Shown piece after piece: positions 20,195 through 48,461 of a stretch of 64,000 nucleotides of DNA. The notes under the pieces were generated by a model, which was not told where the DNA came from, searched no databases, and saw only the letters and a program-made list of their open reading frames with translations. This stretch comes from Shigella phage vB_SboS_Gloob. Location: sequence record OL615011; one strand, written 5' to 3'. Every line of letters starts with the position of its first letter. Within the stretch, counting starts at the first letter, position 1. The position numbers and the translations under genes are program-made.

Positions 20195-20947
20195 TTATCC
20201 CATAAAGAAGTCAATCGGGTACTGCTGACCAGTACGCAGTTCTTCCTCTAAACGCTCGATCTCGCTTTCGGCTTCACTGAACATAGTATCGCCATCCAGC
20301 TCGATACCACCTGGGAGACGGATGCCTCTTGCCTTCTTGAGTACTTCAGCCCAGCGGCGCTTGACCAACGCAGTTGCATACGCCTTCAGCCACATGTCAT
20401 TCCATGCTTCTTCATTACCCTCTACCTCTGGGTCGATGTTCTGGAAACATTTGAACGCCAAAGCCTCGTCCTTTGTCAGGGCGAATTGTGGGTAGAGTTT
20501 ACGCTGGAATTTCTTGTACACGAAGGTGCGCTTCACGTTCAACACACTGGTGATGTCGGATAAACGCTGTTGCATTGAAACATAGTCGATCAAGCGGATG
20601 GAAACGAGGGCGGCCTTTGGCACCAACATGGCTTGGGCCATCTGCCATTGAGGAGTTGCCCAGTTACCGATCGATTCAATCGGAGGACCGACGATGACTT
20701 CAACCACGTCGTCGATGTCTTTGGGGAATTCGATGTAACCGTTGGCGATAGTTTCTTCAGTCACCTGGTGAACAAAGAATGCGTCCTGACTGCCATCACG
20801 ATGATACTCCCAAAACTTCTGTAGAGCGTCATCGACAGCGTCGGATACCTGTGATGGGTCGAGGTTGATCTGAATTACGGGTGCCCCCAATTTCTTGAGG
20901 ATGTAATTCATAAACCCCTTGCGGTCTCTGATAGAATTAACGGCCAT
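20195..20947 (-). CDS. neck protein, gp13-like (about 250 aa)
   Basis: ILKKLGAPVIQINLDPSQV parallels remembered T4 gp13 ILRRLGAPIINVELTPDQI. Confidence 0.6.
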   Translation of the reverse strand: MAVNSIRDRKGFMNYILKKLGAPVIQINLDPSQVSDAVDDALQKFWEYHRDGSQDAFFVHQVTEETIANGYIEFPKDIDDVVEVIVGPPIESIGNWATPQWQMAQAMLVPKAALVSIRLIDYVSMQQRLSDITSVLNVKRTFVYKKFQRKLYPQFALTKDEALAFKCFQNIDPEVEGNEEAWNDMWLKAYATALVKRRWAEVLKKARGIRLPGGIELDGDTMFSEAESEIERLEEELRTGQQYPIDFFMG

Positions 20948-21275
20948 TGACGTTCCCCTTACCACTCTGGAGGTCAGATACCGTAATCCGCAGAGTTCGC
21001 ACGTCGTCGGACAGACTGCTGCTATTGAGTTTTAATTCAGCAACGTTCTGCTTGACGTAGTTGACGTCTGTGTTTAATACAGCGATCTTCTCACTCATAT
21101 CGTTGACTTTGACAAGGATCTGGTCAACCTTGTTGGAATCCCGCTCAACCACATCAAGACGGTTTTCGAACTTACCCATCATCCAAACAACCGAGCCAAC
21201 AGAGACTATCGCCGCCGTCAGCACCCCGGTGAGGATCGCTTTCACATCGATCACAGTGTTAGTTTGAGTTGTCAT
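20937..21275 (-). CDS. membrane-anchored coiled-coil protein (112 aa from MTTQTNTV)
   Basis: N-terminal TM segment AILTGVLTAAIVSVGSVVWMM then heptad-like region; AGGAGG SD. Confidence 0.45.
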   Translation of the reverse strand: MTTQTNTVIDVKAILTGVLTAAIVSVGSVVWMMGKFENRLDVVERDSNKVDQILVKVNDMSEKIAVLNTDVNYVKQNVAELKLNSSSLSDDVRTLRITVSDLQSGKGNVNGR

Positions 21276-21507
21276 CTTGGCCTCCTGACGGGAGTTCAAT
21301 CCCGAGGTGTTCCGCCATGAGTTGTACCGTCGCTGTCAGTTGATCGATTTGCGCTGCCTGCGCTGCAATAGTTCTGTCCTTTTCTTCCTGATTTCGACGG
21401 GCGTTCAGAGCCGCTAAACCAGCAGCACTGTCTGTGCAGATGATAGCCCCAGGGCAAGAGCTACTTCTCATCATCGATGCATGCCCCTGTACTTTTACAC
21501 CACGCAT
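21259..21507 (-). CDS. hypothetical protein (82 aa)
   Basis: ORF track; GAGGAT SD. Confidence 0.4.
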   Translation of the reverse strand: MRGVKVQGHASMMRSSSCPGAIICTDSAAGLAALNARRNQEEKDRTIAAQAAQIDQLTATVQLMAEHLGIELPSGGQDDNSN

Positions 21508-21558: not shown

Positions 21559-24500
21559 TTATGCCAGAGCAATCAAACGGAAATCTTTGAATGATGGCGG
21601 CGCTGTACGGTTGCCTCTCACCAGCAGGCGGATCTTCAGGCCAACAAACGGATTGGTGCTGTCCACAGTCTTGTCATATTCGTATTCAAAGAATGTGGAA
21701 CCATCGTTGACCAGAGGGGATGTTGGAGTCACGGTTTCCCATGCCACGTCATCCATCTCCTGACCAGCGCGGAGCAGTTTCACCTGTACAGTCATTGAAG
21801 ACTGAGAAGGCAGCATCGCACCGAAGTATTGCTTCAGGGTGGTGCAAGGGTTATCGAAGCCGATATCCTTGGTCACATAACTGAACACGTCTTCAAACGG
21901 ATCCACCCCGTAGGTGTTGAAGATGATAGTGAAATCATCTCCATCGATCATCGGAGCCGTGTACACGTTGCTTTCGTTACGCGTCATTGTCGCCCGCACC
22001 TGGAAGTCACCCACTTGACGATAGATCCCTTCCGTCGGCAGCGGTACGTCCGTATCGGATTCGAACTCAGCCCAATCAGAGAATGAGTTGGAGGTCGCAT
22101 CGCGGTAACGGTATTCCAGTTTCAACACAGATCCTTCCAGCGCAGAGTTGGTGACACTTGCATAGAACATGTCCACCAAGTAGTTACCCAGGAACGACGC
22201 CTCTTCCCCGCCGATCTGGCCGTCAGAGTCCGCGTTGGAACTCAGCACGACTTTGAAGCTGGTGAATGAAGCATCAGTTACAGTGTGCTGGGTGTTCAGC
22301 TGCTCCGGTGTGAATCCACAGCCGCCAGTCAGACCAGACAGCGTCACACTCTCACCAGCAGTCAGGCCATGGCCTGGTGCGTACACGGTAACAGTGGAAG
22401 AACCGCTCACGCAGTTGACCATGTTCAAGCCCAGCGGACGGATCTTCGGACCGACCTTGGCATCGAAGGTCACGATGTTATCACCAGCACTGAAGTTGCA
22501 GCGATATACACGGAACTTCATATCGGCAGTCTGGTTTGGAGTCCAGGTCGTACCGTTTGAAGATGTGAAGAACACGCCAGTGTACGGCTGTTTGGCAATG
22601 AACTCGTTGGTCAGCAGGTTTTTCTTGCCCATCTCGGCGATGTACGCGTTGTAATCCTGGGTGTTGGCCAGTAGTACAATCGCGAATTCAGTCTGAGCCT
22701 GCAGATACACAGGGTAATCGAACTTGAACATCGTCGGCACAGAAGAGTCCGTGGAGATGGAGACTTCTGATGGGTTCAACGTCTTACGAGTGACCACAGT
22801 TGTCGCTGGAAGCCCGTTGCTCATTTCACGTATTTCCAGAGTGATCGGGATATCTCGTGACTTGGTGGAGAAGAACACTTCGATCCCTTCGATGTACTCA
22901 CCACCAATATTGGTAGCAACCATGAAGGATTGAGCAATCGGGTCTTTCCACTTCGCAACTTCAACCGTCTCCGTCTTGTTCTCTGTGGACTTGGTCGCAG
23001 TGTAACCCAGGACGCGAGTGTTGACATAGGTCTTTTGAATGCCCTGTTTCTTACCGAAGGATTTGTGAACCGCTTCAGCATTGGTCAGGGTATCATCAGC
23101 AGACTTGCTGTCAACAGGGCTGTCGGTCAGACGGAAGACGTTGTCGCCCGTGTTGAACTTAACAGTCTCGTTCTGAGGAACTGCGAACACGCCTTTGATG
23201 TTGCCGTTGGCGTCAGTATTCAACGCACCACCCAGGGAGCCGCCGTTGGGTGTACAGTACGCGCTAACATCACGTCCAGAGAAGAACGGATACACGCGAG
23301 TAAACGGACGCAGACCTGTGGCTTCGAAGTTGATGTTCGTTTTGCGCATGTATGGGATTACCTGCGTTTCAACGATCTGCTCGCCAGTCAGGGTAGTGGT
23401 CGTCTTGTCGGTGTACGTGTACGTGGTGACGTCACGGGTAGACACAGTCGTGCGGTAGCGGTAGCCCCACCATACGCCGCCTGCGCCATGCGGTTCCCAC
23501 ACACGCTCAGACACAGACACAGTACGCCATGTGCCATACACGGAACCTTCTTTGATCGCGCCGCGTGTGTTGATCGTTTCGTTGATTACACGTGGAGCAA
23601 CATAGTAGTTCTCGAACCAGTAGTCGGTGGTTGGGTTCAGTTTCAGGAAACCTTCCCAGTTGAACACCGCATATGGGTTCACGTTGATGGTCGTGGTCGC
23701 ATAATCCTGGCGCACAGAGATCTCACGGGTGTAGTTGCATACAACCATGCCATCCTGAACGTTGTTCCAGCCCACTGGCGTCAGGTCAACCGCATTCTGC
23801 TGAACGAACGGGCGTAGGCGACCATTGTCAGTGTCGATTGAACCTACCCAGTCAGCGGACAAATCGTCGATCAGACGGAAGTCTTTGAACGGGTCGGCAG
23901 CGATACCGTTTTTGAAGCGCGGGTTGCCAGTGATCGGGTCGAACACCTGCTGAGTCATAGCTGAAGATTCCAGCTGTGACAGTGAGGTGTAGTATTCAAC
24001 ATTGGAGATACGGGTCTCCAGTTTACCGATATCACGCATCGTGTAACGACGGTTGTCGATGGTACGAATCTGAATATCGTCGATGTTGGCCGTGTAAGGC
24101 GGGATCATCAATTCGTACAGACGCATGCCGTTGTCTGGGATCGCAGGCGAAGCCAGGTTGTTGGAACTCACACCACGCGCAACGTTAAACACGCCGTTGT
24201 CGGCCAGATACACGGCATCAATACGAGGCAGATAGTACTCCGCATCGAGGACGATGGCAGTGTTCGGGCGAACCATGTCCGTGTCGGACGCTCCGCTGGT
24301 GATCTTAGGACGGAAGTCCAGGCTGTCTGCCAGACCATACACAGTACCAGAACTGGATGAAACATAGTTCGGGATGTCTTGGTAGTCGATAGACGAATAG
24401 GAGTCCGCCGTAAAGAAGTCACCGGAGCTGTGGGCGAAATACTGATACACCACCGTGAACACGCCTGAGATGGCTCCAGTAGACGATACGAGGTTAGAAC

Positions 24501-26397
24501 GGTAGTACGCCGCATCGCGCTGGCCGCCGTCCAGAGTGAAGTTCGAGGTGACGTCAGCGCCATTTGCGTTCTTCACGCTGACCAGTTTGTAGCCGTCGTG
24601 ATTGTTCAGCTGTACGCTGGCCGCCGAAGTGAACGTTGCGGTCTCGGTGACTTCGGTCACAGTCTTTGTCTTGATCGTTGCTGTGGTACGCACCATCAGA
24701 GCCAACAGGTTGATGGATTGGTTGGCATAGCCAGCACCCAAAGAGATCTGGAGAGCAGAACCCACTGGTGTACCTGTCAGAGACAGTCCTGAAGAAATAT
24801 CGAACTGAGCTGCAGTGCCATCTGCCTTCGCCGCCGAATACAAAGAGAATTCAGGACTGAAGCTGTAGCCCAGAGGAGCAGAGATAGAGCCTGTGCCTGC
24901 CGCACTCAACGTGATCTTGTTTGACCGCAGGACGGTGTAGTTGATATCAATGGTTCCAGTAGGAGCCAAGGTCTTCACGCCGAATACAGGCAGAGGGAAG
25001 ATCAGGTCAATCGCCGAACTCTGGCTGAACTGATTAGACTCCAGTTCGCAAGAGAACATTGTTGTACCGCTTTCTTCATAAGCGACTTTGGTCACCGTGC
25101 CCATGTCCCCAGTCACGACCAGATCACGCATGTACAGACGGAATTCAGTACCGGAGCGCTCTGCTGAAATCAGCAGCGCCGTTGCCTGGGTCACGCTCGA
25201 AGCGTTCAGGAACTTGTAACGGATTGTGCGAGAGACAACCGGAACCCCTTTGGAGTTCTTGGACACCAGATAGTTGCCAGTCGCAACAGCCACAGGGTTG
25301 TTGTTCAGGGTATCAGTGTCACGGGCTTTATCAATGGTGACCAGCTCTTCGCCGAGGTTTTCGATACGACGGCCACGAACGTAGGAGATCCCTGGCTTCA
25401 TGACCGCCACGAATTTGCTTGCGTCACCACCTTCAGCCGGAGTGTACACGCCGCCGTTGTTGTTCTCTTTCAGATGTTCACGCAGGTCGATCTGATGCGT
25501 AGACACGTTGTAGTCACCATTGGTCTCATAGGTACGCTGAGCCATGGTGTCTTCGAGGATGTTGTACGTTGACTGGGTGACCATGGACTGAATGCGACCG
25601 TCTTTCACCTTCGCCAGTTCAACGAAGTCGGCCACTTCTTCATCATAACCGTAGCGAGACAACACGAGGTCGACGCGCAGGCGATGCGCGCCAGGCGCTT
25701 TAGAGTTCGGAGTACCCTGCGCATTGGAATACAGGCTTTCGTCTTCTGCTTCTGTAACAATGGTTTCTGTTACTTTGAATCCAACGCGGTGTGAAGTAGA
25801 GTTGGACGCGTTATCTACGATCAGAGTAGCTGGTTCAACATCTAGGAACATACCACGAACAAAATAAACACCCTTTGTCATGCGAGCAACAATCGAACCG
25901 CCAACAGTAGCAGCCACACCATAGCCGACGCGGATGAAGTTATCGTTCACGTCGTAGGTGTTGAAGTACAGGTTATCCCCAGCTTCGAAACCGTCTGAAC
26001 TACCACTCTCAGTCATCTCTAAGATGGCATACATTGTATCCGGCTCAGCCAGGTAACGTTCCAGAGACAGGACGCGTGCTTTCGCATTGTTGTCCTTGCC
26101 CAGAACATAGAGTTCGGAGATACCTTCCAGATCAGTGAACTCGCTACCACCAGCCAGAGTGAACTTCATGGACACTGCGGTGTTGGTGATTGTCAGACCG
26201 CCGGGAATAACCATAGATCCTTCTTTGAAAAGATGGTTGCCGATCTTTTCAAGCTGGTCTTGGAAGATAGTCTGAAGCTGGTTCAGTTCACGCGTCTGTA
26301 CTTTGATAGGAGCCGGACGGAACAGGATGCGTGAAAAACGCTTCTCTGGATTCCAGTCATCCCAGTACGGGCGGCGGTTGAGGTTCATTTCTTGCAT
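21559..26397 (-). CDS. giant virion structural protein (1612 aa), function unassigned
   Basis: ATG at 26397 (MQEMNLNRRPYWDDW); the 88-codon extension in the track overlaps the upstream tailspike 3' end and is rejected. Confidence 0.6.
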   Translation of the reverse strand: MQEMNLNRRPYWDDWNPEKRFSRILFRPAPIKVQTRELNQLQTIFQDQLEKIGNHLFKEGSMVIPGGLTITNTAVSMKFTLAGGSEFTDLEGISELYVLGKDNNAKARVLSLERYLAEPDTMYAILEMTESGSSDGFEAGDNLYFNTYDVNDNFIRVGYGVAATVGGSIVARMTKGVYFVRGMFLDVEPATLIVDNASNSTSHRVGFKVTETIVTEAEDESLYSNAQGTPNSKAPGAHRLRVDLVLSRYGYDEEVADFVELAKVKDGRIQSMVTQSTYNILEDTMAQRTYETNGDYNVSTHQIDLREHLKENNNGGVYTPAEGGDASKFVAVMKPGISYVRGRRIENLGEELVTIDKARDTDTLNNNPVAVATGNYLVSKNSKGVPVVSRTIRYKFLNASSVTQATALLISAERSGTEFRLYMRDLVVTGDMGTVTKVAYEESGTTMFSCELESNQFSQSSAIDLIFPLPVFGVKTLAPTGTIDINYTVLRSNKITLSAAGTGSISAPLGYSFSPEFSLYSAAKADGTAAQFDISSGLSLTGTPVGSALQISLGAGYANQSINLLALMVRTTATIKTKTVTEVTETATFTSAASVQLNNHDGYKLVSVKNANGADVTSNFTLDGGQRDAAYYRSNLVSSTGAISGVFTVVYQYFAHSSGDFFTADSYSSIDYQDIPNYVSSSSGTVYGLADSLDFRPKITSGASDTDMVRPNTAIVLDAEYYLPRIDAVYLADNGVFNVARGVSSNNLASPAIPDNGMRLYELMIPPYTANIDDIQIRTIDNRRYTMRDIGKLETRISNVEYYTSLSQLESSAMTQQVFDPITGNPRFKNGIAADPFKDFRLIDDLSADWVGSIDTDNGRLRPFVQQNAVDLTPVGWNNVQDGMVVCNYTREISVRQDYATTTINVNPYAVFNWEGFLKLNPTTDYWFENYYVAPRVINETINTRGAIKEGSVYGTWRTVSVSERVWEPHGAGGVWWGYRYRTTVSTRDVTTYTYTDKTTTTLTGEQIVETQVIPYMRKTNINFEATGLRPFTRVYPFFSGRDVSAYCTPNGGSLGGALNTDANGNIKGVFAVPQNETVKFNTGDNVFRLTDSPVDSKSADDTLTNAEAVHKSFGKKQGIQKTYVNTRVLGYTATKSTENKTETVEVAKWKDPIAQSFMVATNIGGEYIEGIEVFFSTKSRDIPITLEIREMSNGLPATTVVTRKTLNPSEVSISTDSSVPTMFKFDYPVYLQAQTEFAIVLLANTQDYNAYIAEMGKKNLLTNEFIAKQPYTGVFFTSSNGTTWTPNQTADMKFRVYRCNFSAGDNIVTFDAKVGPKIRPLGLNMVNCVSGSSTVTVYAPGHGLTAGESVTLSGLTGGCGFTPEQLNTQHTVTDASFTSFKVVLSSNADSDGQIGGEEASFLGNYLVDMFYASVTNSALEGSVLKLEYRYRDATSNSFSDWAEFESDTDVPLPTEGIYRQVGDFQVRATMTRNESNVYTAPMIDGDDFTIIFNTYGVDPFEDVFSYVTKDIGFDNPCTTLKQYFGAMLPSQSSMTVQVKLLRAGQEMDDVAWETVTPTSPLVNDGSTFFEYEYDKTVDSTNPFVGLKIRLLVRGNRTAPPSFKDFRLIALA

Positions 26398-26432
26398 TTT
26401 GATGCTCCATCGATAGGTGCCATTATAGACAT

Positions 26433-26443
26433 ATTTAGTATAC
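26433..26443 (-). promoter_or_regulatory. late promoter motif variant CTAAATATGTC
   Basis: About 35 nt upstream of giant-gene ATG. Confidence 0.4.
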
Positions 26444-26470
26444 AGCCAACCGAGGAATAGAAAGAAATAA

Positions 26471-26486
26471 GCCCTCCGAAGAGGGC
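26471..26486 (-). terminator. terminator GCCCTCTTCGGAGGGC plus U-tract after tailspike array
   Basis: Stem-tetraloop followed by UAUUUCUUUCU on minus strand. Confidence 0.65.
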
Positions 26487-26492
26487 TCTGAT

Positions 26493-28955
26493 TTAGTTGA
26501 CAGAATCCAGCATCGACAAACATTTCAGCTGAACTTGCACAACACTTTCGTTGGTCACGGCTGGAACAGTCAACCCAGATGCAGATATGCCGAAATTCGC
26601 TATGAAGCCTGTGGTCTGACTCCGCACGACATCTGTACCCGTGCCGCTCCCACCGTTGCAAGCAAACTGGGTCTGTTTCGAACCGAAAGCATCACCATTA
26701 CCACTTACACATAACTGCCAAACTCCGCGAGGAAGAGTTCCCGGTATTGTTATGGAAGCCGCCCCCGCAGGCCTGGTGAATTTAATATTTTCAAAGAAAA
26801 TAGTATCTTCAATTGTAGCCGTGTTTCGTGTTCCGAAACTCAGTGCCTGGTTTCCAACAAAACTGATGGATGTGCGACTGTCAAGAACAAAGCTAGACAA
26901 AAGCCCAGTCTGTGCTGTGACGTTACAGTCGACGATGTTGCCGTGTGCAGTGACCGCTTTCGGAATACCCTGAATTTTGTAACCAACAGTCCGGTAATTC
27001 AGAGAAAGGTTATTCAATTGTTTAACAGTATTCCCGATCATCTTGACTTTCTGGCCGCGATAAACCTGACCAGAAGTTGCCCCCGCATTAACGCAAATCC
27101 CCTCCGTTTTGTTATTAGAGGTATTGCATTTCATGACCACGGTATTATGGCTGATGTCTATATCGTTGTAAACAAAGTACGAGCTGTCCCCCGCACCAGT
27201 TGCTATGGAAACACCGTCGACAGAACGGAGTTCGCAATAGTTGTTTAGCACTTTCACGAAAGGTTCAGGATAAGTTGTGCTCGTGGGTTCACCCCCGCCC
27301 CCGACGTCGATAGACCTGGTATACTTCGCCCCAATCAATGGACCCGTGGTCTCACTGTCTGGAATGTCGCGAGAACGGACGTAGTTGTTTGCAATTATCA
27401 GGTTATACGGCTCATAATTTGGACTCCAGCCGACGCCACATTTGGCATAAATACCCACAACGCCGTGTTCTAAACATTGGTTTCCCGTGATGATCGCTTG
27501 TCCACCACCATGGAAATCAATACATTTTCTACGACAATTTTGGATCTGATTGTTGGTGACTGTAACGTTTCTGACTCGGCGGTTTCGGCCGTGTGTAATG
27601 CCATACCCAGGGTCATAACTGGCGTTGACCAAGTCATCACCGGATGGATGCCCGATATCATTAATGACGTTGGCGTCGTAGTTCAGGCGATAACCAGATA
27701 GCACATAAATGCCGCCACTGTAGCATTTACTGATAGTAGAATTGACCACCAAAATACCGTTCGGTACGTCTGAATCCACGGTGTAGTCGGCTGTCCCATA
27801 AGCAACAGCGGCGTTCCTGATACCGATACCAACCCCAGCAAAGTTGAATCCGGTTATATGACAGTTATTAATCAAAATGCCACGACATGCTCTCTGCACT
27901 TTAATCCCACACGCCCAGCTTCCGATGTAACCACCAAGGAAAGTGCCCCAAGTGCTCCTCCAACCCGCAATTTGGGTGCCTGCGGAGTCGTAGGAAGGGA
28001 ACTGCCCAGATACACCAGAATAAGCACCACTAGTGTAAGCAGAACTGTCAACTGAATTGTTGGGTCCTGTGATTTGAGCTGAATCATACCCAAAGCCAGT
28101 TTCACCTTTCTCTGCATACCCGGTGGTTGGGTCTATCGCTGGGAAAATGCTGGGTCCGGTTATCGTCAGTTGCACAGTAACGTTTTCACAATTAACTAAT
28201 GATAAAGCGTCAAGTCCGTGTGTATTGACTTTAATCGAACCATTGAATACCTTTATCCCTTTCTTGTTCACGAGCGCTAAACAAGGGCTGAAGTTTCTTG
28301 TTCCATCAGAAAAGTCAGATTCACCGGGATATTTGTTAGCCAACGCAGGATTTTTGGACACGAGGTAATTTCCTCCACCCAAATTCAAATCCCCAGAAAC
28401 TGATTCAAAGAAAGCTTGGAGGGCTAACGTGTCGTCCGTGCTACCATCACCGATAGCACCGAAGTCTTTTGGAGTCAAAATTCTTTTGGCTGGGTTAGAT
28501 TGTAAAACCCAGGTAGAAGAAGAAATGCCTCCTGTGTTAGAGACTGTGTCGTTCGCCGATACCGTCTTCGGCAGAGAACCCGCCCAACGATACAATTCCT
28601 TCCCGTCACTCACCAATTCGTTCTTGACGCGGATAGTGAATCCAGACGTAAAGTTTTCGACCAGAGTAACGAACTCCCCACGTATTACAGCCAAAGCACC
28701 CAGGTCGACAGTGCCCGTATTGTGTACAAGAATGCCGTCTGTCAGGCTGGTGATGGTAGCGCCAGCAGGCAGGTTAGAAGGTAGTGCATAGGAGCGCTGA
28801 GTGACCTTATCGTAGATTACCTTGTAACCAGTCAGGGTGGAACCTGGTTTAGCATACAGAACTTCGGACTTCTTGCATCCAAACTTGCGAGCAATGGAGT
28901 CCTTGTTTGTCTCTTTGGAGACAGAGCCTTTCGGCTGTGAAAATTGCGGATTCAT
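26493..28955 (-). CDS. tailspike protein (about 820 aa), beta-helix depolymerase-like
   Basis: Start MNPQFSQPKGS with AGGAG SD; N-terminal WAGSLPKTV docking motif; Asn/Gly-rich repeats typical of right-handed beta-helix. Confidence 0.7.
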   Translation of the reverse strand: MNPQFSQPKGSVSKETNKDSIARKFGCKKSEVLYAKPGSTLTGYKVIYDKVTQRSYALPSNLPAGATITSLTDGILVHNTGTVDLGALAVIRGEFVTLVENFTSGFTIRVKNELVSDGKELYRWAGSLPKTVSANDTVSNTGGISSSTWVLQSNPAKRILTPKDFGAIGDGSTDDTLALQAFFESVSGDLNLGGGNYLVSKNPALANKYPGESDFSDGTRNFSPCLALVNKKGIKVFNGSIKVNTHGLDALSLVNCENVTVQLTITGPSIFPAIDPTTGYAEKGETGFGYDSAQITGPNNSVDSSAYTSGAYSGVSGQFPSYDSAGTQIAGWRSTWGTFLGGYIGSWACGIKVQRACRGILINNCHITGFNFAGVGIGIRNAAVAYGTADYTVDSDVPNGILVVNSTISKCYSGGIYVLSGYRLNYDANVINDIGHPSGDDLVNASYDPGYGITHGRNRRVRNVTVTNNQIQNCRRKCIDFHGGGQAIITGNQCLEHGVVGIYAKCGVGWSPNYEPYNLIIANNYVRSRDIPDSETTGPLIGAKYTRSIDVGGGGEPTSTTYPEPFVKVLNNYCELRSVDGVSIATGAGDSSYFVYNDIDISHNTVVMKCNTSNNKTEGICVNAGATSGQVYRGQKVKMIGNTVKQLNNLSLNYRTVGYKIQGIPKAVTAHGNIVDCNVTAQTGLLSSFVLDSRTSISFVGNQALSFGTRNTATIEDTIFFENIKFTRPAGAASITIPGTLPRGVWQLCVSGNGDAFGSKQTQFACNGGSGTGTDVVRSQTTGFIANFGISASGLTVPAVTNESVVQVQLKCLSMLDSVN

Positions 28956-28988
28956 AACGAATCTCCTGTTGTTATTCTCAATGGAAAG

Positions 28989-29011
28989 CCCCACTTAGTT
29001 AATAAGTGGGG
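28989..29011 (-). terminator. hairpin CCCCACTTA-GTTAA-TAAGTGGGG between tailspike genes
   Basis: 9-bp perfect stem downstream of stop at 29034. Confidence 0.45.
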
Positions 29012-29033
29012 AAAGGAAAGGTGTAAAATTAAT

Positions 29034-31241
29034 TTAAGAAGATGCAGACCATTGTGGCATGCTGAGTGTCCACTTACCAATTGACGTCCAATAAGTAGCA
29101 GTAAATGTAGCAGTCTTAGTTGTGGCAGTATTCGCACCCGTAACATCAACAGGAACACCTGCAAAACTCAAAGATGCAATGTTACTACCACGAACCAACA
29201 TATTAATTTTTTGCCCGTTATACGGTGTTCCAGACACTGTGATATTCAAACCGGAAGTCACATTTAGATAATATAATGCGTATCCCTGTCGGACATCTAT
29301 AGGAAGTGTTCCAGCTGTATATTGTGCAAAGGATTGTGTACCACGGTCTACAGCCAAGCCGTCTGTGTTACCTATTGGGATAACGGTTCCGCCAGGGAAT
29401 GCCCTAGCCCTTGGAATATAGGCGTAACATTGGCTTGCCCCAGAGAAATCAAACCAACGGGTTCTCAGTCCATTATTAGGAGCATGGATCACAGCCCCAA
29501 CACAACCACGACCTCGATACATACAGTCACCGATGGAATGACTATGATTTATACCGGCACAATAAAAGTCCCGGCTTCCTCCGCTTAGGTTGATATCAGC
29601 AATATCATTACGCTCAAAGTACATTCCGTAGACGTTTGTTCCGTCTGCGCTGTCGTAAAGTCCAAACTGACTGGTGTTCTGGCTAAATCCACCTGTAATG
29701 CACACGGCAGATGTGGAAAAGGTATTCACGTAATCGACATCAGTGCTTCCGTCAGTGCTGTTAAAAACTACGATGCCATAATCGCACTTGTTAGCAGGGT
29801 CGCCAGAGTATCCTCGATGGTCTTTAATCGTAATAGCATTCGGGCCATTAAGGACAAACAGACGTTTACCACCTATTCCACCGTTCAAAACCTCAGAGTT
29901 AGATATAATAACCCCATAACTCATAAACTCGATTCTAATTCCGGTGTTTCCTGTTCCTAGCCCCATATCAATCCAAGGGTCGAAAACACCAGTGTTGTTT
30001 CTGGCGCTGTATAAATGCAAGCCGATACAGTTGTTAAACCCAGAAAGGTCAATACGTATATCGTGAGTCTTACAGTTTCGAATAAAGGCGCTATTAACGT
30101 CTAATGAAGAAGCTCGTGCTACAGTGACTCCATCCGCCCCAGCTTTAATTTTTGCATTGGGATGGAAAAATACTTGGGTGTTCTGACCGAATTTAATGGT
30201 TTCTGCTGCCGTTGATACGGTGTAGTCTCCTGCATTGAAATAAATCCCACCACCAGCGGCCAAAATTGTGTTGATTTCCGCGTTGGTCATCGTCGGATAG
30301 ATGTTTTTCAACGGGAAAACGCCGGTTTTAACGGCATAATCATCGAAAATAGTACCACCATACCCGCTGCCAATTAATTTAGTTCCTATATCAGAAGCCA
30401 ATTGGTCACGTAAAGAATTTTGGTCTACTCGTACCCAAGCATCAACATCAATACCACCAGTGGTAACTGGAGTAGATCCGGCTACCACAGTTTTAGGCAG
30501 CGTGCCTGCCCAACGATACAATTTACCTTCTGCCTTATATCCGACAGACTGAGAAGCCGTAATAACAGTAGCACCAGCTTCAAACGTGCCTACCATAGGC
30601 AAACCAGATTCGGCAGCTAATCGACTCAGGATAGGATCGAGAGCACCACTGAAATTACCAGAGGCTTGTTTAAGTGTATTAATCTCCTCTTGCACCGTCT
30701 GCCCAGAAGACGTACCAATCAGACTTGCTCCTCCATCGGAAGAGAGCGCCAGGTAATTTTGTTTGATGGACATCTCGGCCACGACCCAAACCCCAGCCGC
30801 TGGTGAACCTGTAAGGAAACTCACAACTCCTGTTGTGCTATTGTAGGTGTAGTCAACCCCAGGAACCTGGAACTTACCATCGATATACAGGGTCTGCACA
30901 CCATATGTGGTGAAGTCGGGTGTGAACGTTGTTTCGTTGCCAACGGCCTGGAACTTGTAGATTCGGATCCCGTTTTCATAATCTTCTGGGGACAGGATCT
31001 TGTCAAACAGACAGTACACAACGTCTTCTGGTTCAAGAGATCGACCGAGGTTGACAGTGTTACCATCGATTTCATAATTGTCGACAGGAACCTGGACGCC
31101 GCCGTTGATGGTGATGAAGCCCGTAACAGGATAGAACGGGAGGGAGATAAACGTCTCTCCGCCCGTTGCGGTATAAGTGTATGGAATCTGGTGCGGGGCT
31201 GTTACAACCGCTCCAAAGATACTCTCGACGTTTCTGGTCAT
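29034..31241 (-). CDS. tailspike protein with extended N-terminal attachment domain (about 735 aa)
   Basis: Start MTRNVESIFG; WAGTLPKTV motif at about residue 250; beta-helix-like repeats. Confidence 0.7.
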   Translation of the reverse strand: MTRNVESIFGAVVTAPHQIPYTYTATGGETFISLPFYPVTGFITINGGVQVPVDNYEIDGNTVNLGRSLEPEDVVYCLFDKILSPEDYENGIRIYKFQAVGNETTFTPDFTTYGVQTLYIDGKFQVPGVDYTYNSTTGVVSFLTGSPAAGVWVVAEMSIKQNYLALSSDGGASLIGTSSGQTVQEEINTLKQASGNFSGALDPILSRLAAESGLPMVGTFEAGATVITASQSVGYKAEGKLYRWAGTLPKTVVAGSTPVTTGGIDVDAWVRVDQNSLRDQLASDIGTKLIGSGYGGTIFDDYAVKTGVFPLKNIYPTMTNAEINTILAAGGGIYFNAGDYTVSTAAETIKFGQNTQVFFHPNAKIKAGADGVTVARASSLDVNSAFIRNCKTHDIRIDLSGFNNCIGLHLYSARNNTGVFDPWIDMGLGTGNTGIRIEFMSYGVIISNSEVLNGGIGGKRLFVLNGPNAITIKDHRGYSGDPANKCDYGIVVFNSTDGSTDVDYVNTFSTSAVCITGGFSQNTSQFGLYDSADGTNVYGMYFERNDIADINLSGGSRDFYCAGINHSHSIGDCMYRGRGCVGAVIHAPNNGLRTRWFDFSGASQCYAYIPRARAFPGGTVIPIGNTDGLAVDRGTQSFAQYTAGTLPIDVRQGYALYYLNVTSGLNITVSGTPYNGQKINMLVRGSNIASLSFAGVPVDVTGANTATTKTATFTATYWTSIGKWTLSMPQWSASS

Positions 31242-31247
31242 TTGAAG

Positions 31248-31288
31248 ATACCCCATAGAGGATTTGCCAATATGGGGTATTTAGTGAA
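31248..31288 (-). repeat. 41-nt module ATACCCCATAGAGGATTTGCCAATATGGGGTATTTAGTGAA, copy 1 (late promoter plus leader palindrome)
   Basis: Identical to 33467-33507; contains CTAAATACCCC on minus strand and inverted repeat ATACCCCATA / TATGGGGTAT. Confidence 0.75.
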
Positions 31289-31440
31289 TGGATAAGGAGT
31301 CGCAGGACTCCCACTTGTTTTATATGATTACGAATTTACCCAGGCTGATATCGTTAATCAGCGTAGCCACTATGTTTGCCAGTTGGGTGGTTGTTAACGT
31401 GTTCACATGACCACGCAATTGCTGGCTACAACAATGATTG

Positions 31441-33462
31441 TTAGCTTAGATTTAGACTAAACCCACCATTTGACTTGCTTATCATACCACGAACAGTTTT
31501 GTTGCCTCCACCGCTGTATTCGTCATATTGCATTTTGACATTTACAGCGATGTTGGCGTCAATTGAATCCCATCCAGCAAAGTTCAGGAACACATTTCCG
31601 CTAGTGTCTACTGATATTGTTGGCGTGGCGGCTGTTCCTTTTGTGAACGTACTTTGCACTGAACCTTCCATTGTGCTTGCTGCTGGAGTTGTGCCCATCA
31701 CCAATGTTCCCTGCAATCGCCCATGCCATGCGCTAGAAACACCTGAAACCGGGGAGTTGGCTACAACATCAACCGTCCACAAACTTACGTTTCGGTACGT
31801 ACTCACAGTGCCAATTTTAAAATTCCTGGAATCTCCAGCGGCTTTAATGAACAGCATTGAACCCGTAGCGCATTTACTTGAATCAGGCGCTGCACCTACA
31901 GATGCAAAATCAGAGAATGTGCAATTATCAAATTTTACTTTGCTATAATCGGTAGCTGTTAACTTAGCTTCTGGCGCATTAACATTTTCGAATTTAACTC
32001 CGCCATAGTTCGCCACTGCGCCTGTAAGCTGATTGGTATTGACATATACATCACCACCATTCAGCTTTCGGACCACCAGGTCACGACAGATAAATCCGTT
32101 AATAGAATCTCCCGACGTCCAGTTGTCGTTGGTGTTGAAGTTAAAGAACCATGCATGGTTACCAGAGTCTCCGCCGCCAAGTTCTATGCGTCCGGTGATC
32201 ACAATATTTGAATAACCATATCCACGCGGGTTATTATCTGCTACAGACTCGTCAATCAGCTTTGTTGCGCCAATAACACTTCCCCAATTCCCCCCGACGA
32301 CATCATAATTGATGGTTATGTTACGCATCAGTCCGGCAATCATCGTCTCTGTTATGGTGCTGTCCCAACCCCAATCCAGCCATATTGGTGCTACGCGGTA
32401 CGGAAGCGTGTAACGCCCTGTGCTACGATATTTGTAATTGACTGTAAGATTAGATATTTGATTATCCATGTTACCGTTATAGAAATACATTTTGATTGGC
32501 GTACCCTGTTGAGTATCAATGGCATCAACAGTTATCTGGCCACCACCACAATTGTTCGTCAGAAAGAAATCACGACGGCAACCATTATTAACTGTATGGA
32601 TGTCAACTACACCAACATTACCAAGGAGATGTGGATAGCGAGTGTCATTGTTCACACTGCGAGCAAAAAGATTTTTTACATTAGTACATTCGTAGCCCTG
32701 ATAGCACTTGTTAGTCTTGCCAATAAATGTGAAATTATTGCATCCATTCAGGCGCAGCGGGGTTAGTCCGCGTTTGTCATCACCGACATACTCAAGGGTG
32801 GAAGAAGCATCCACTTCAAACACCAGATTGGTGATATTCGTCAGGTCGAACACGCGCGTCAGGTCAAATGCACCGGAGTAAAGCAGGGTGTCCCTGATAA
32901 CCAGTCCGCGAATTTCAAGGCAGTCCATATTACTTAAAGTAAAGATGGTACTAAGACCGCCACTACCAGGACCAAAGTTCACAACCTGGTCAAAAATAAT
33001 TTCAACACTTTTTAGGTTGTTAGACGTGATGTAAGACTGTAAAGATTGCAGTGTACCGAATCGGGAGAAGTAAAGGACACGTTTGTTTACAACCGAATCA
33101 AGAGCATCTTTTACTGTAGATGATTCGTATCCGACAAGACTTGCCTTTTCACCCGTCAGCAGTTCAGAACCCAGCGTTTTGCTTTCAACGCTAACCCATG
33201 CTGAAGATGATACACCACCAGTTGATTGTGGTGTTGAGTTTTTGTCTACAGTCTTGGGCAAAGACCCACCCCAGGTATAACACTGGGCACCATTGATGTG
33301 CCACACGGCGTCGGTTGCGGTCGTTACAGTAGCACCGTCTTCAAAACTACCTTCGACCAAATTAAGACCCGATTCCAACAAAGCCCGCCGCCACAATTCG
33401 CGCGGGTTTTTGTTGATTTCTTTGGCTGTTGAACCTTTCGGCTGATTGAATTGCGGATTCAT
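31441..33462 (-). CDS. tailspike protein (about 673 aa)
   Basis: Start MNPQFNQPKGS; WGGSLPKTV motif; beta-helix-like. Confidence 0.7.
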   Translation of the reverse strand: MNPQFNQPKGSTAKEINKNPRELWRRALLESGLNLVEGSFEDGATVTTATDAVWHINGAQCYTWGGSLPKTVDKNSTPQSTGGVSSSAWVSVESKTLGSELLTGEKASLVGYESSTVKDALDSVVNKRVLYFSRFGTLQSLQSYITSNNLKSVEIIFDQVVNFGPGSGGLSTIFTLSNMDCLEIRGLVIRDTLLYSGAFDLTRVFDLTNITNLVFEVDASSTLEYVGDDKRGLTPLRLNGCNNFTFIGKTNKCYQGYECTNVKNLFARSVNNDTRYPHLLGNVGVVDIHTVNNGCRRDFFLTNNCGGGQITVDAIDTQQGTPIKMYFYNGNMDNQISNLTVNYKYRSTGRYTLPYRVAPIWLDWGWDSTITETMIAGLMRNITINYDVVGGNWGSVIGATKLIDESVADNNPRGYGYSNIVITGRIELGGGDSGNHAWFFNFNTNDNWTSGDSINGFICRDLVVRKLNGGDVYVNTNQLTGAVANYGGVKFENVNAPEAKLTATDYSKVKFDNCTFSDFASVGAAPDSSKCATGSMLFIKAAGDSRNFKIGTVSTYRNVSLWTVDVVANSPVSGVSSAWHGRLQGTLVMGTTPAASTMEGSVQSTFTKGTAATPTISVDTSGNVFLNFAGWDSIDANIAVNVKMQYDEYSGGGNKTVRGMISKSNGGFSLNLS

Positions 33463-33466
33463 GATA

Positions 33467-33507
33467 ATACCCCATAGAGGATTTGCCAATATGGGGTATT
33501 TAGTGAA
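33467..33507 (-). repeat. 41-nt promoter/leader module, copy 2
   Basis: Identical to 31248-31288. Confidence 0.75.
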
Positions 33508-33518
33508 ACATTTTACCG

Positions 33519-36500
33519 CTACACGTATACAATGCGCATTATTGCGTTCGTTCCGGCCTCAACAATTGATGTGACAGAACCAATTTTTACGCCAGTCGAA
33601 TCAGTAATTCTTACTACCCCGTCCACATTGTCAATCTTTGAATTAACAGTCTGGTTAATCTGTATGGCATTCACTTTGTTTGAGGATATTTCGCTTGCAA
33701 CCAGAGTACCAGTGGTCATGACTATACCCACAGAAGAACTTCCCTGGTTTAATACAGCGTCACGGATAATGGCTTTGGTGACATTTCCACCAAACTGAAT
33801 ATCTGCAGACGTAGTTGATGCCTGATTAATACGTTTTACACCAGATATTGTGATCAAAGATATTACACCTGAAGTGATGTCCAAGGAAATAGCACCTTTG
33901 TTCGTGGCTGGACTGGACAAGGAAATATCAGACAAGTGAACAACGCCAATGGTATTCCCAGCCCTTTGTTGAAAACGAATACCGCCGCTGTATCCTTGTC
34001 CGTATATCCCATTTATATGGGCATACGGAACGTTACCCAGCGCGTCGCGAATCGCAACTACATATTCAGCACCTTCGGACCATATATTTGTTGCGTTAAC
34101 TTGTCCTGAGTTTATCAACAAACCCGCACCGATCCCCGCCAATGTGTCAGAACCTGTGCGCTCTGTATTCAAGAACAGATTGCTAACATGGTTTAGGCCA
34201 TACGCACAATCAACTCCATTCGATATGCGTCCGCGTCCTGTGATCGATTCCGCCCACCCATTTTCACCATATAAACTAACGATAGAATACATGGCCGTGT
34301 CTGTGGTATCGCAAACTGCGTTAACAATCTTAACTGAAACATCATTGGCTTGAATTTTAACAGCACGTTTACGAACGTTGTAACAATCAATGTCTTCGAC
34401 GCGAATATTCTTTGCGCTCAACATCGTCGAGGTCGAGTCATATATCTGTACAACGACCCCATCACAATCTTCAAATGGAGCCAATTCGCGAACACGTATT
34501 GATTTGATCAAACCACTGGAAACTGTGGATTGCGTCGGCGCAGGATCGAGTGCTGTTCCGACGATAATGCCACGACATGGGCCATCCGCATCCCCTTGTG
34601 AGCCGTTCGCAACTGAAGTCAGGTTACGAATAGTCACATCATAAACCAAAAAATCTGTGATACCATTAGCATCGACAAATATCCCGTTGGCATTGGTTGC
34701 TCCTGTGCTGTCAAATACTTCAACAGAAACAACTCGAGGTCTAGAAGATCCCGTTTTAAGGTGAACGGCGCGGCGAATTGCTTTGTTATTACAATTCACC
34801 TTTACGTCCCGTAGAGTTGTAGAATTTACGGTTACAAACGAACCAGTATCACCCAATGCTACAACTTCACCATTGAATAATTTCTTGACAATATTCAAGC
34901 TAGAAACAGGAACGGCATATCCGTTCAAATCAACATCGAGTCCAAATTCCATGATGGCTTCGATGGATTCTTTTGCATCAGCAAGTCCCGTGGTATACAC
35001 ACCAGGCCAGCGCAGCTTACCACCATTGGGTAATAATTTGTACGAATTGGAATTGTAAGTCAGATACAAATGAGAACTCTGAACTGAAAATCCTTCAGAA
35101 AGACCCGTCACCGAAGTATCCAAGACGTAAACTTCGCCAGAAATGATTATGGTTTCAAACGCTTCGGTATCCATTTCTTGCCCAGCGTGAACCCCGCCAC
35201 CAATATAGTTGATCCCTACACTGGAACCCAAGAGACTAGACAAATGGTCTGCAGAGCCCAAGTATGGTATCAAAGTCACAACGACGTCACCAGGAGCATA
35301 CGTCAGGGTGCTACCGCTGACAGACACGATAGAAGCGCCCGTTGGAATGCCCGCAGGTAAACCCCAAATCTTCTGAGCAACTACATCGTAAATGATCGTC
35401 TTGCCGCCCAATTTGGTCACAGTATCCGAAGTCATGATCACCTGGGAAAGAGGGACATTGGTTGCCCGCGCCACTTCGTTTGGTGTGCGGTCAATCTGAT
35501 TGTACAGTGTTGGATCACCATTAATGACGACAACAACCTCATCACCAGCTTCGAGTTCGTCGGCCAGCGTGATGATCTTCGTAACAGAGTCATAAGTGAA
35601 GCCCAGGCCTTTCTGCTGGCGGGATCCATCGATAAAGATCTCAGAAACATCTTCGGCATCCACGTCCAACTCAATCTCAGTTTCACCACCCACAGCTGAT
35701 CCACTATTGTAGATCCAAGTGATAACCGTACCACCACCCGCACCGCCGGAGCCATTGCCCAACTGGATCGGGACGTATTGGATGACCTGCAGCTCGGAAC
35801 CTGATGGGATTGATGGACTGAAGTCGACATTGAAACCATTGAGGGAATACTTTGACTCTAGCAGGCGCTTCCCGTCAACATACACATCAACAATGGACGG
35901 CTGTGTGGTGAGAGTTACCTGAGCTGTGTCTGATGCAACTGTCTCAGTGAAGATGGTACGACTGTAAACGCGCCCCTGACCAAGACCGACGCCAGCAGTC
36001 ACAATCCAACCACGCGCGTCTCCAGACCAGGTAAAGGTCGCAGACACGCTATCGGTGGAGAGAGTCATAGGCTCTACAGAGCCGTACATTGGGCGACCAT
36101 TTGGGTCAATGGTCAGAGGATACAGGGAGAACTTTCCATACAAGTCACAGACTGTAACAGAATCACCAATGCGCGTAGGGGAAGGAAACACCACCGTAGA
36201 GACGCCCGTGGAGTTGTCTACCAGATAGCCTCGCCCTTCAGTGAGCGTTGCCGTAGAGGCATGCGGAAGGGCTTCCCAGCGAATACCACCGCCACCCAGC
36301 GGCATCCATCCACCATTTTCGTAGAAGCCCTCAAATTCGTCGGAGTCGGCATTGTAGCGAACAGAAGACGGGAGACCTGCGCTGGCATTACCCTCGGGTA
36401 AAGTCAGGACAGCATCTGGTCCATGCTCAATCGTACCCGTGTTGAGGATACCAGCCAAAGTAGACTGCTCTTCAGCCACCAGACCGAGAGGGAAAACAGG

Positions 36501-36521: not shown

Positions 36522-36554
36522 TTCAAATACCCCTAAATGTGTTCGTTTCATCTA

Positions 36555-37785: not shown

Positions 37786-37787
37786 TT

Positions 37788-40404: not shown

Positions 40405-40442
40405 GTTTATCTCCATCACCTGAACTTGAATATGGTGTTGAA

Positions 40443-48450: not shown

Positions 48451-48461
48451 CTAAATACCCC
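48451..48461 (+). promoter_or_regulatory. late promoter CTAAATACCCC with leader palindrome (ATACCCCA / TGGGGTAT)
   Basis: Exact motif about 22 nt upstream of ATG 48484. Confidence 0.5.

Follow-up and report, generated by a model that had tools for sequence, protein, structure and literature searches.

vriC of an Agtrevirus-like phage encodes an enlarged relative of the baseplate tripod protein

Our analysis covered a window of 64,000 nucleotides from Shigella phage vB_SboS_Gloob (sequence record OL615011), an Agtrevirus-like member of the Ackermannviridae, and focused on a gene at 21559..26397 (minus strand) whose 1612-aa product is an enlarged relative of the baseplate tripod protein. This protein is known as gp119 of Staphylococcus phage 812 (PDB 9EUF, 9EUI, 9EUJ, and 9EUK) and as Gp106 of Listeria phage A511, and it has the DUF4815 domain in common with the protein studied here. 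The gene itself is the conserved vriC of Ackermannviridae (VrlC-like, DUF4815) and thus already known and ordinary; finding it is no news because textbooks would list vriC as a marker gene of this family. As the best explanation of the evidence as a whole, we consider it probable that vriC encodes a tripod homolog serving these phages as a peripheral baseplate or secondary-adhesion module.

Identity, expression signals, and setting of vriC

The ORF list and the translation agree on a single 1612-codon reading frame on the minus strand that runs from an ATG at 26397 to the stop codon at 21559-21561, as a previous sequence-only reading of this region had described it. Mechanically, the ORF reaches beyond this ATG to a TTG at 26661, and the extension overlaps the tailspike ORF before it (26493..28994), lying inside the 3' part of that ORF and upstream of its terminator-like hairpin. 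Because of this location and because all vriC homologs start at the equivalent of M1 (consensus MxxTNxNxxPYFDD), we conclude that the extension is not translated, in line with the earlier view that its translation is unlikely. The gene is real, belongs to the late region, and evolves under purifying selection, with 93.0% nucleotide versus 98.3% amino acid identity to Salmonella phage SKML-39 (the latter by tblastn).

The sequence-only reading had recognized no motif in the protein, which did not hold up: Pfam DUF4815 (PF16075) matches it in three stretches with 203.1 bits at a cut-off of 30 (E = 8.4e-60) and places it in the named vriC/VrlC family. PF16075 was found in 120/120 homologs among the matches listed, the DUF4815 family comprises 4959 cluster representatives at E<=1e-3, and homologs of vriC occur in around 1700 phage genomes. 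By megablast, the gene is 93% identical at the nucleotide level to its counterparts in SKML-39 and Ag3, which are labeled "virulence-associated VriC protein" and "putative VrlC protein" in the database, and the range across Ag3, MK-13, P46FS4, and AV101 (records annotated as VriC or VrlC) is 90-93%. In members of Kuttervirus and Taipeivirus, the amino acid identity is still around 84%. Conservation is even over the full length, with identities of roughly 0.6-0.9 in close and 0.16-0.56 in distant homologs and no hypervariable end. In the literature, vriC is a conserved gene of Ackermannviridae used as a marker that flanks the tailspike (tsp) cluster (PMC8432352 and PMC11721090), and it is named after VrlC, which is encoded in the vrl locus of Dichelobacter nodosus. 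Like the named vriC genes, to which it is highly identical, the gene studied here encodes around 1600 aa and flanks the tsp cluster opposite the wedge genes. It is the same gene as Ag3 ORF206 and the vriC genes of SKML-39, AV101 (WJJ54140), and Sajous1 (gp140), with 1612 aa in the slot between the tsp cluster and gp13, and differs from them in nothing substantial, i.e., it is a new allele with 93% nucleotide identity to the nearest deposited phage.

Upstream of vriC, four tailspike genes occupy 26493..36551 on the same strand (26493-28994, 29034-31256, 31441-33489, and 33519-36551), encoding proteins of 833, 740, 682, and 1010 aa, the last of which is TSP4-like; they were assigned by Pfam Tail_spike_N and Beta_helix, PHROG tail spike families, and the AV101 annotation. 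Beyond them lie the wedge-side genes (36574..40419, minus strand) for a gp6-like protein (598 aa), a PF23786 Baseplate_wedge protein (284 aa), and a conserved 403-aa protein. On the 3' side of vriC, two small ORFs, one for an 82-aa virion structural protein (phrog_4322) and one for a protein of 112-120 aa, are followed by homologs of gp13, gp14, and gp15 (20195..21507, minus strand, up to the gp13-like neck protein). The gene order is therefore gp6, wedge, 403-aa protein, four tailspikes, vriC, and gp13, and the earlier placement of the gene between a tailspike array and neck genes was correct, with four tailspikes 5' and gp13/gp14 3' of it. The positional analogy to genes 11, 12, and wac of T4 likewise holds, given the order gp6, gp7-like, tailspikes, vriC, and gp13.

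A late-promoter-like motif, CTAAATAT, is found 34 nt 5' of the vriC ATG (26438-26431, minus strand). The T4 late promoter TATAAATA itself is absent 5' of vriC, where the local variant is CTAAATAY, and this variant is present at 12 sites in the window versus 1.5 expected, 11 of them with an ATG no more than 60 nt downstream (the exception is at 10480). These numbers bear out the assignment of a late-promoter variant to vriC, and CTAAATAT is a putative promoter because of its likeness to the late promoter of T4. A sigma-70-like TTGGCT-16-TATAAT sequence (10/12 matches in a consensus scan) overlaps the late motif at 26422..26449 on the minus strand, but such sites are not more numerous in the region than expected by chance. 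Reading of the sequence further revealed a Shine-Dalgarno GGAG 8 nt 5' of the ATG (26405..26408, minus strand).

The claim that vriC also has its own terminator could not be upheld. The only canonical intrinsic terminator near the gene, a hairpin followed by a T-run at 26488-26469 on the minus strand (-14.7 kcal/mol, z = -4.1), terminates the preceding tailspike gene and not vriC. A GC hairpin (GGCGGGG-GAAA-CCCCGCC) located 13 nt past the vriC stop codon (21545-21528, minus strand; in a fold of -18.3 kcal/mol, z = -3.1) has no T-run and was not called by the terminator scan.

Relationship of VriC to the tripod protein

The structure of the tripod of Staphylococcus phage 812 has recently been solved and revealed homotrimers, 12 per baseplate, each attached to a loop of the arm scaffold. 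Its spine helices are combined with beta domains termed flap, base, fin, leg, and anchor, and its CBM16/61-like domains and LysM-like hook are proposed to bind the cell wall (PMC13433997). The behavior of the tripod Gp106 of phage A511 has been described in PMC11406892. VriC matched PDB chain 9euf_0 with E = 5.7e-52 in phmmer and E = 9e-120 in a profile search; we take this chain to be tripod protein gp119 from the gene order g116-g123 of Kayvirus Stab23 and the numbering in PMC13433997. In hhalign, VriC aa 3-1607 aligned to aa 2-1152 of a 1158-aa tripod ortholog with a probability of 100% and E = 2.8e-69. As judged by these sequence comparisons, VriC is homologous to the tripod over its whole length and collinear with it.

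Structure prediction points in the same direction. AlphaFold2 models were made of an N-terminal part (aa 1-1000; pLDDT 75.9, with good confidence as far as around aa 800 and low confidence at aa 810-1000) and a C-terminal part (aa 1101-1612; pLDDT 84.8). Foldseek returned tripod chains as best matches of both, 9eui_Q for the N-terminal (E = 2.5e-21) and 9euf_0 for the C-terminal model (E = 3.9e-15, TM 0.54), and found no non-tripod PDB match for either of them at E<1e-3. In this comparison of whole models, the predicted fold of VriC is the same as that of the tripod, i.e., spine helices combined with beta domains. The two proteins share an order of three spine-type helices (H34-56, H280-293, and H787-815 in VriC) followed by a chain of beta-sandwich domains, and the gene for each lies within a block of baseplate and receptor-binding genes. 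By homology, the N-terminal module also resembles the "shoulder" fold of TssK from type VI secretion and of the receptor-binding proteins of lactococcal siphophages p2 and 1358.

VriC differs from the tripod in being 454 residues longer, owing to three all-beta insertions (aa 97-171, 359-568, and 1339-1414), and in belonging to a phage of a gram-negative host, whereas the host of phage 812 is gram-positive. From the N-terminus, a conserved segment with the first long "spine" helix (aa 1-62; 26212..26397, minus strand as for all following segments) aligns to tripod aa 2-60 and contains the invariant residues P10, D13, Q34, R36, E37, Q48, and G60. It is followed by an all-beta domain (aa 63-171; 25885..26211; pLDDT around 80-86) that is the least conserved part among distant homologs and of which aa 97-171 are, by hhalign, inserted compared to the 812-type tripod. 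The conserved N-terminal part of DUF4815 with the second helix (aa 172-358; 25324..25884) corresponds to tripod aa 75-240, and a large beta-barrel or beta-sandwich insertion (aa 359-568; 24694..25323) has nearly no counterpart in the 812-type tripod. The DUF4815 core with the long third helix (aa 569-991; 23425..24693) corresponds to tripod aa 274-675; it holds the best Pfam and PDB stretches and, at aa 751-850, the most conserved region of the protein.

Next to the core, beta-sandwich domains with a conserved DPIAQSF...SSNGSTWT block (aa 992-1310; 22468..23424) correspond to tripod aa 676-955, and the model has a pLDDT of 84-95 from aa 1151 onward. The tripod was also the best Foldseek match of these domains, besides weak matches of the C-terminal part to the CBM22 tandem 4xup (probability 0.95-0.98, E = 5e-3), and no CBM or LysM Pfam domain was detected at threshold in VriC. 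The third insertion forms a small beta-barrel resembling Phage_spike_2 and endosialidase beta-barrels (aa 1311-1414; 22156..22467; Pfam, profile, and hhalign), with a match of aa 1351-1421 to PF18781 at 24 bits (cut-off 25), a weak one to PF12195, and a profile match to aa 192-258 of the phi92 endosialidase. The C-terminal beta-sandwich domains (aa 1415-1612; 21562..22155; pLDDT >90) are again homologous to the C-terminus of the tripod (aa 972-1152) by hhalign and phmmer domain 4.

The other parts of the 812 baseplate are less readily recognized in the window, where the arm scaffold with its docking loops and the gp8-like arm segment have no clear counterpart. The 284-aa wedge protein matched the N-terminus of the 812-type arm scaffold (g117) weakly (E = 0.007) and nothing in a PDB sequence search, while the 403-aa protein had no BLASTP match to this scaffold and only spurious PDB sequence matches to ubiquitin and HA2. 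The 82-aa protein encoded downstream of vriC did not align with the small gene following the tripod gene in Kayvirus.

Virion presence and proposed role of VriC

Published proteomics show that orthologs of VriC are abundant in purified virions. In phage Ag3, the ortholog ORF206 (177.2 kDa) is among the six most intense virion bands and was identified with 36 peptides at 39.6% coverage (PMC3121705), and by spectral count (311 spectra), VriC of Sajous1 (gp140) ranks with the most abundant proteins of the virion (PMC10892097). The sequence-only reading had proposed a structural protein and named absence from virions as what would refute it; these data contradict such an absence. Its suggestion of a baseplate protein or adhesin fares best in light of the homology to the 812 and A511 tripods, with which the Foldseek results of both models agree. 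A search of the literature, including cryo-EM and tomography of baseplates, yielded no structure or location of VriC in Ackermannviridae virions.

By analogy with the tripod, VriC is most likely a trimeric module of the baseplate periphery that contacts the cell surface and rearranges upon adsorption; we extrapolate its location, oligomeric state, and number of copies from phages of gram-positive hosts at around 26% identity. A helix-plus-beta module at the N-terminus would attach the VriC trimers to a loop in a wedge or arm protein, with the C-terminal beta-sandwich domains facing the cell. After binding and cleavage of the O-antigen or capsule by the tailspikes, the trimers would change their orientation and touch a conserved envelope layer, which would help to fix the baseplate and to relay the conformational change that triggers contraction of the sheath. 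Since VriC is evenly conserved among phages whose tailspike sets and hosts are unrelated, we infer that it is a generic baseplate or secondary-adhesion module and not a host-range determinant. It is also the best candidate for the "prong-like" structures that have been seen by electron microscopy under the baseplates of Ackermannviridae.

The ligands proposed for the 812 tripod (wall glycans, and peptidoglycan via the LysM-like hook) cannot apply as such to VriC because its host is gram-negative: teichoic acid glycans and peptidoglycan are either absent from enterobacteria or not exposed on them. A more specific idea, which we put forward tentatively and hold to be possible rather than probable, is that VriC is a tripod adapted to gram-negative hosts whose prong trimers flip once the tailspikes have cleared the O-antigen or capsule and use the lineage-specific inserted beta-barrels to bind a conserved component of the envelope, for instance the LPS core, so that this step rather than tailspike binding licenses contraction. 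If true, the tripod switch mechanism would reach beyond Herelleviridae into a large clade of proteobacterial myoviruses with genomes of 150-175 kb, and perhaps into T4-like cyanophages. Tailspike swapping has already been used to retarget Ackermannviridae phages, and a conserved secondary receptor step, if present, would limit or enable such designs. The solved tripod of phage 812 offers a concrete structural template for testing VriC as a host-independent adsorption or trigger step.

Alternative readings

Another way to explain the location of vriC is that its product is the scaffold or adaptor of the branched tailspike complex, as the sequence-only reading had considered, with the anchor domain of TSP4 binding to VriC instead of the wedge. 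The gene always adjoins the tsp cluster (PMC8432352), the protein is large and abundant, and Ackermannviridae lack gp9-gp11 (PMC11721090), so that something else must hold the tailspike complex. Nothing indicates that this is VriC, however: the tripod of phage 812 carries nothing, and tripods and receptor-binding proteins attach independently to the separate arm scaffold (PMC13433997), while the tailspike complex of CBA120 is reportedly anchored via the N-terminal anchor domain of TSP4 (review PMC11721090). Furthermore, comparison by VriC sequence alone finds homologs of around 1600 aa with 31-41% identity at full coverage in Ralstonia phage RSP15, Delftia phage PhiW-14, Vibrio phages, and many metagenomic sequences. 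We therefore regard a scaffold function as unlikely.

Some database records call VriC a "tail fiber protein" or "adsorption-associated tail protein", and a sialidase activity has been speculated for VrlC-like domains (PMC10199479), which together with the small endosialidase-type barrel could suggest that VriC sets the host range much as tailspikes do, either by host-specific receptor binding or by an enzymatic activity (sialidase or depolymerase). But Pfam revealed no catalytic domain and only matches to non-catalytic barrels below its cut-off, and the models are chains of beta-sandwiches without any beta-helix, with endosialidase matches that cover nothing but the small barrel. In the absence of a Beta_helix or enzyme domain, identity as a tailspike or depolymerase was rejected. 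VriC is moreover 84% identical across phages of Salmonella, E. coli O157, and Klebsiella with differing tailspikes, and this identity and its even conservation are the opposite of what characterizes a host-range determinant, which makes this explanation very unlikely.

Given that vriC fills the slot of T4 wac beside gp13 and gp14, and that one cyanophage homolog is annotated as "neck protein", VriC might alternatively replace fibritin as a neck, collar, or whisker protein. With T4 gp11, gp12, and fibritin, VriC nevertheless shares nothing but a place in the gene order flanked by gp10-like proteins and gp13, and no sequence or fold similarity to them was found in Pfam, PHROGs, the PDB sequence search, or Foldseek, so that identity as fibritin or gp12 was rejected. 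There is also no long coiled coil, as the model of aa 1-1000 contains just three helices of 14-29 residues and that of aa 1101-1612 contains none, and the protein to which VriC is homologous over its full length has been seen by cryo-EM as part of the baseplate. A neck protein is thus highly implausible.

Finally, we give practically no credence to VriC as a phage-borne virulence factor of bacterial type and rejected this identity: nothing but the name inherited from VrlC speaks for it, we know of no effect of VriC on a eukaryotic host apart from phage particles, and the protein is an abundant virion component homologous to a baseplate protein and found in around 1700 phage genomes, encoded in a late structural module behind a late-promoter motif.

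Position, reading frame and gene family of vriC

On sequence grounds, vB_SboS_Gloob belongs to the Ackermannviridae, subfamily Aglimvirinae; the window matches two Agtrevirus phages best, Salmonella phage SKML-39 and Shigella phage Ag3, and after them phages of Enterobacter, Escherichia and Dickeya. Its vriC gene comprises 1612 codons on the minus strand, from an ATG at 26397 to the stop codon at 21559-21561 (ORF list and translation). The mechanical ORF runs further upstream to a TTG at 26661, and this extension falls within the 3'-terminal part of the ORF before it (26493..28994, minus strand), upstream of that tailspike gene's terminator-like hairpin (26488-26469). In the homologue alignment, the start at M1 is equivalent in all sequences (consensus MxxTNxNxxPYFDD, P10 and D13 invariant), and a GGAG stands 8 nt 5' of the ATG, so the coordinates and the dismissal of the upstream extension in an earlier sequence-only reading were correct. 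The 93.0% DNA and 98.3% protein identity to the closest deposited relative indicate that vriC is a real coding sequence under purifying selection.

From Pfam and PHROGs matches together with the phage AV101 annotation, the minus-strand gene order was assigned as a gp6-like wedge protein (38623-40419), a 284-aa PF23786 Baseplate_wedge protein (37788-38642), a conserved 403-aa protein of unassigned function (36574-37785), a TSP4-like tailspike (33519-36551), three further tailspikes (31441-33489, 29034-31256 and 26493-28994), vriC (21559-26397), an 82-aa virion protein (21259-21507), a protein of about 112 aa without assigned function (20937-21299) and, from 20195, gp13 followed by gp14, gp15, terminase, sheath and tube. 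The order in T4 is 6-7-8-9-10-11-12-wac-13, so vriC occupies the slot of T4 genes 11, 12 and wac, as had been proposed. The G+C content of the tailspike genes is 0.44-0.48 (26001-34000) against 0.53 for vriC (22001-26000) and about 0.50 for the rest of the late region, consistent with horizontal exchange of tailspike modules beside a stable vriC.

No motif had been recognised in the gene, but its product does match Pfam DUF4815 (E 8.4e-60; 203 bits, cut-off 30). Deposited orthologues are labelled "virulence-associated VriC protein", "putative VrlC protein", "tail fiber protein" or "hypothetical protein"; the name goes back to VrlC, encoded in the virulence-related locus of Dichelobacter nodosus, and is uninformative on function. 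Published work regards vriC as a conserved marker beside the tailspike cluster, and the gene served to locate this cluster in 99 Ackermannviridae genomes (PMC8432352; PMC11721090). Homologues were found by tblastn in 1691 phage records spanning Ackermannviridae, Vibrio, Stenotrophomonas and rhizobial phages, T4-like cyanophages and Herelleviridae, and a search of 1.84 billion proteins gave 4959 cluster representatives at E<=1e-3. At 31-41% identity, full-length homologues (about 1600 aa) extend as far as Ralstonia phage RSP15 and Delftia phage PhiW-14.

Absence from virions, which would speak against a structural role, is contradicted by published data on two orthologues. Ag3 ORF206 (177.2 kDa; 92.9% nucleotide identity to vriC) forms band A, among the six most intense in CsCl-purified virions, with 36 peptides and 39.6% coverage (PMC3121705), and VriC of Salmonella phage Sajous1, with 311 spectra, is named as one of the five best-represented gene products (PMC10892097). 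The gene is already on record under this name, published work places its product in virions, and a structure is available for its closest structural homologue.

Homology to the phage 812 tripod protein

By sequence, the sole PDB relative of VriC is a 1152-aa "DUF4815 domain-containing protein" in 9EUF, 9EUI, 9EUJ and 9EUK (E 5.7e-52 for the single sequence and 9e-120 for a profile built from 109 homologues), entries that show the Staphylococcus phage 812 baseplate (PMC13433997). The Kayvirus Stab23 encodes a Baseplate_J wedge protein (g116), a protein without functional annotation in its record (g117), a gp8-like protein (g118) and a DUF4815 protein (g119), with g121, g122 and g123 as next genes; the phage 812 paper uses the same numbering for wedge, arm scaffold, arm segment, tripod, RBP1, coupler and RBP2 (PMC13433997). 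Gene order and numbering agree exactly, and the PDB chain is therefore taken to be the tripod protein.

A local hhalign comparison of the 120-sequence VriC alignment with Stab23 g119 gave a probability of 100% and E 2.8e-69, with VriC aa 3-1607 collinear with tripod aa 2-1152 of 1158. The two differ mainly by three insertions in VriC (aa 97-171, 359-568 and 1339-1414), the third of which resembles a small Phage_spike_2/endosialidase beta-barrel (24 bits, just under the Pfam cut-off of 25) and matches residues 192-258 of the phi92 endosialidase in a profile search. Structure prediction agrees: the AlphaFold2 model of aa 1101-1612 (pLDDT 84.8) is all-beta, and its best PDB match in Foldseek is the pre-contraction tripod chain (E 3.9e-15, TM 0.54, 482 columns), with a poorer fit to the post-contraction chains (TM 0.29). 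For aa 1-1000 (pLDDT 75.9; confident at about aa 40-800, poor at 810-1000), tripod chains were again best (E 2.5e-21), and neither model matched any non-tripod structure in the PDB at E<1e-3. Three helices in the N-terminal model (34-56, 280-293 and 787-815) match the three "spine" helices of the tripod (PMC13433997). Tripod homology and the virion data on orthologues support the description of VriC as a structural, adhesin-like baseplate protein.

Because the motif RAT...(S/A)P(L/M)(M/I) is shared (Staphylococcus phage Stab23, 8995-12471; PDB 9EUF), a peptidoglycan-specific role may not be the whole story for the domain that carries it. In Herelleviridae, a small gene directly follows the tripod gene (A511 gp107, Stab23 g120), just as the 82-aa ORF (21259-21507, minus strand; PHROG "virion structural protein") lies directly 3' of vriC, though the two show no sequence similarity.

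Proposed role and docking partner

In phage 812, each arm scaffold protein has two triangular docking loops, and twelve tripod trimers sit on these loops. Upon adsorption the trimers rotate, those on the outside by about 170 degrees, and the beta-sandwich domains named base, fin and leg are rearranged toward the cell wall; this frees the central spike and is linked to the contraction trigger (PMC13433997). Gp106 of Listeria phage A511 forms equivalent pyramids that reorient toward the wall (PMC11406892). The literature searched yielded no structure of an Ackermannviridae baseplate; by homology, VriC would form trimers at the periphery of this baseplate, with the C-terminal beta-sandwich chain pointing at the cell. 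The trimers would act once tailspikes have bound and cut surface polysaccharide, and may dock on a wedge or arm loop, bind a conserved envelope component and take part in triggering.

VriC is conserved evenly from end to end, without a hypervariable C-terminus (identity per 50-residue window 0.60-0.91 in 24 close and 0.16-0.56 in 95 distant homologues), and is about 84% identical across Salmonella, E. coli O157 and Klebsiella phages with differing tailspikes. These patterns therefore mark it as a generic module rather than a host-range determinant, which fits a review's suggestion that VriC forms "prong-like" structures beneath the baseplate (PMC11721090).

The sequence-only reading had also offered, as one possibility, that VriC is a scaffold carrying the tailspike complex, which would have the anchor domain of TSP4 bind VriC. 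We consider this quite improbable, as nothing found here favours it and the related phage 812 system speaks against it. The original observation holds and its description is largely accurate; its interpretation is right in part and wrong in part. What the tripod-like VriC still offers is a template for testing the tripod role in phages of Gram-negative hosts.

As a possible docking partner, the 284-aa wedge protein (37788-38642, minus strand) shows only a weak match to the N-terminal region of the 812-type arm scaffold (aa 172-279 versus 68-174, 28% identity, E 0.007) and stops where the scaffold goes on into the docking loops. It appears to be a gp7/TssG-type wedge subunit in truncated form, its distal part either missing or separately encoded. 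It covers only the first 272 of 978 PHROG profile positions; the matching Kayvirus arm scaffold protein has 746 aa. For the 403-aa protein (36574-37785, minus strand), a PDB sequence search and comparison with the 812-type arm scaffold gave no informative relative; it may serve the tailspike complex as a fibre or adaptor. This protein (phrog_3838) sits between the wedge genes and TSP4, has repeated "STYN(S/A/T)KM..LD" segments at about aa 225-295 and shows weak coiled-coil-type matches (NPV_P10, HA2).

Promoter and terminator signals

The late-promoter variant ascribed to vriC was recovered as a motif, CTAAATAT at 26438-26431 (minus strand), 34 nt 5' of the ATG. The pattern CTAAATAY occurs at 12 sites in the window versus 1.5 expected (a count of 12 was reached in 0 of 100 shuffles), all but one (10480) with an ATG at most 60 nt downstream; a promoter function is suggested by analogy with T4 TATAAATA. 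A sigma-70-like TTGGCT-16-TATAAT overlaps the vriC motif, and such sites showed no enrichment in the region in a consensus scan.

The gene had further been credited with its own terminator. A strong GC hairpin does follow the stop codon (21545-21528; local fold -18.3 kcal/mol, z -3.1), but it lacks a T-run and escaped the terminator scan; the claim holds loosely at best, and we count it among the errors of that reading. The only canonical terminator nearby, GAGCCCTC-TTCG-GAGGGCTT followed by ATTTCTTTCT (26488-26469), is that of the tailspike gene upstream.

At both vriC (26438) and gp6 (40451) the site is the CTAAATAT variant, without a leader hairpin. Elsewhere, CTAAATAC extends to CTAAATACCCCAT at 786, 3972, 31284, 33503 and 36565 (minus strand) and at 48451 and 48939 (plus strand), with an inverted copy, ATGGGGTAT, immediately 5' of the start codon, so that the predicted transcript leader would open with a hairpin, probably carrying the ribosome-binding site in its 3' arm.
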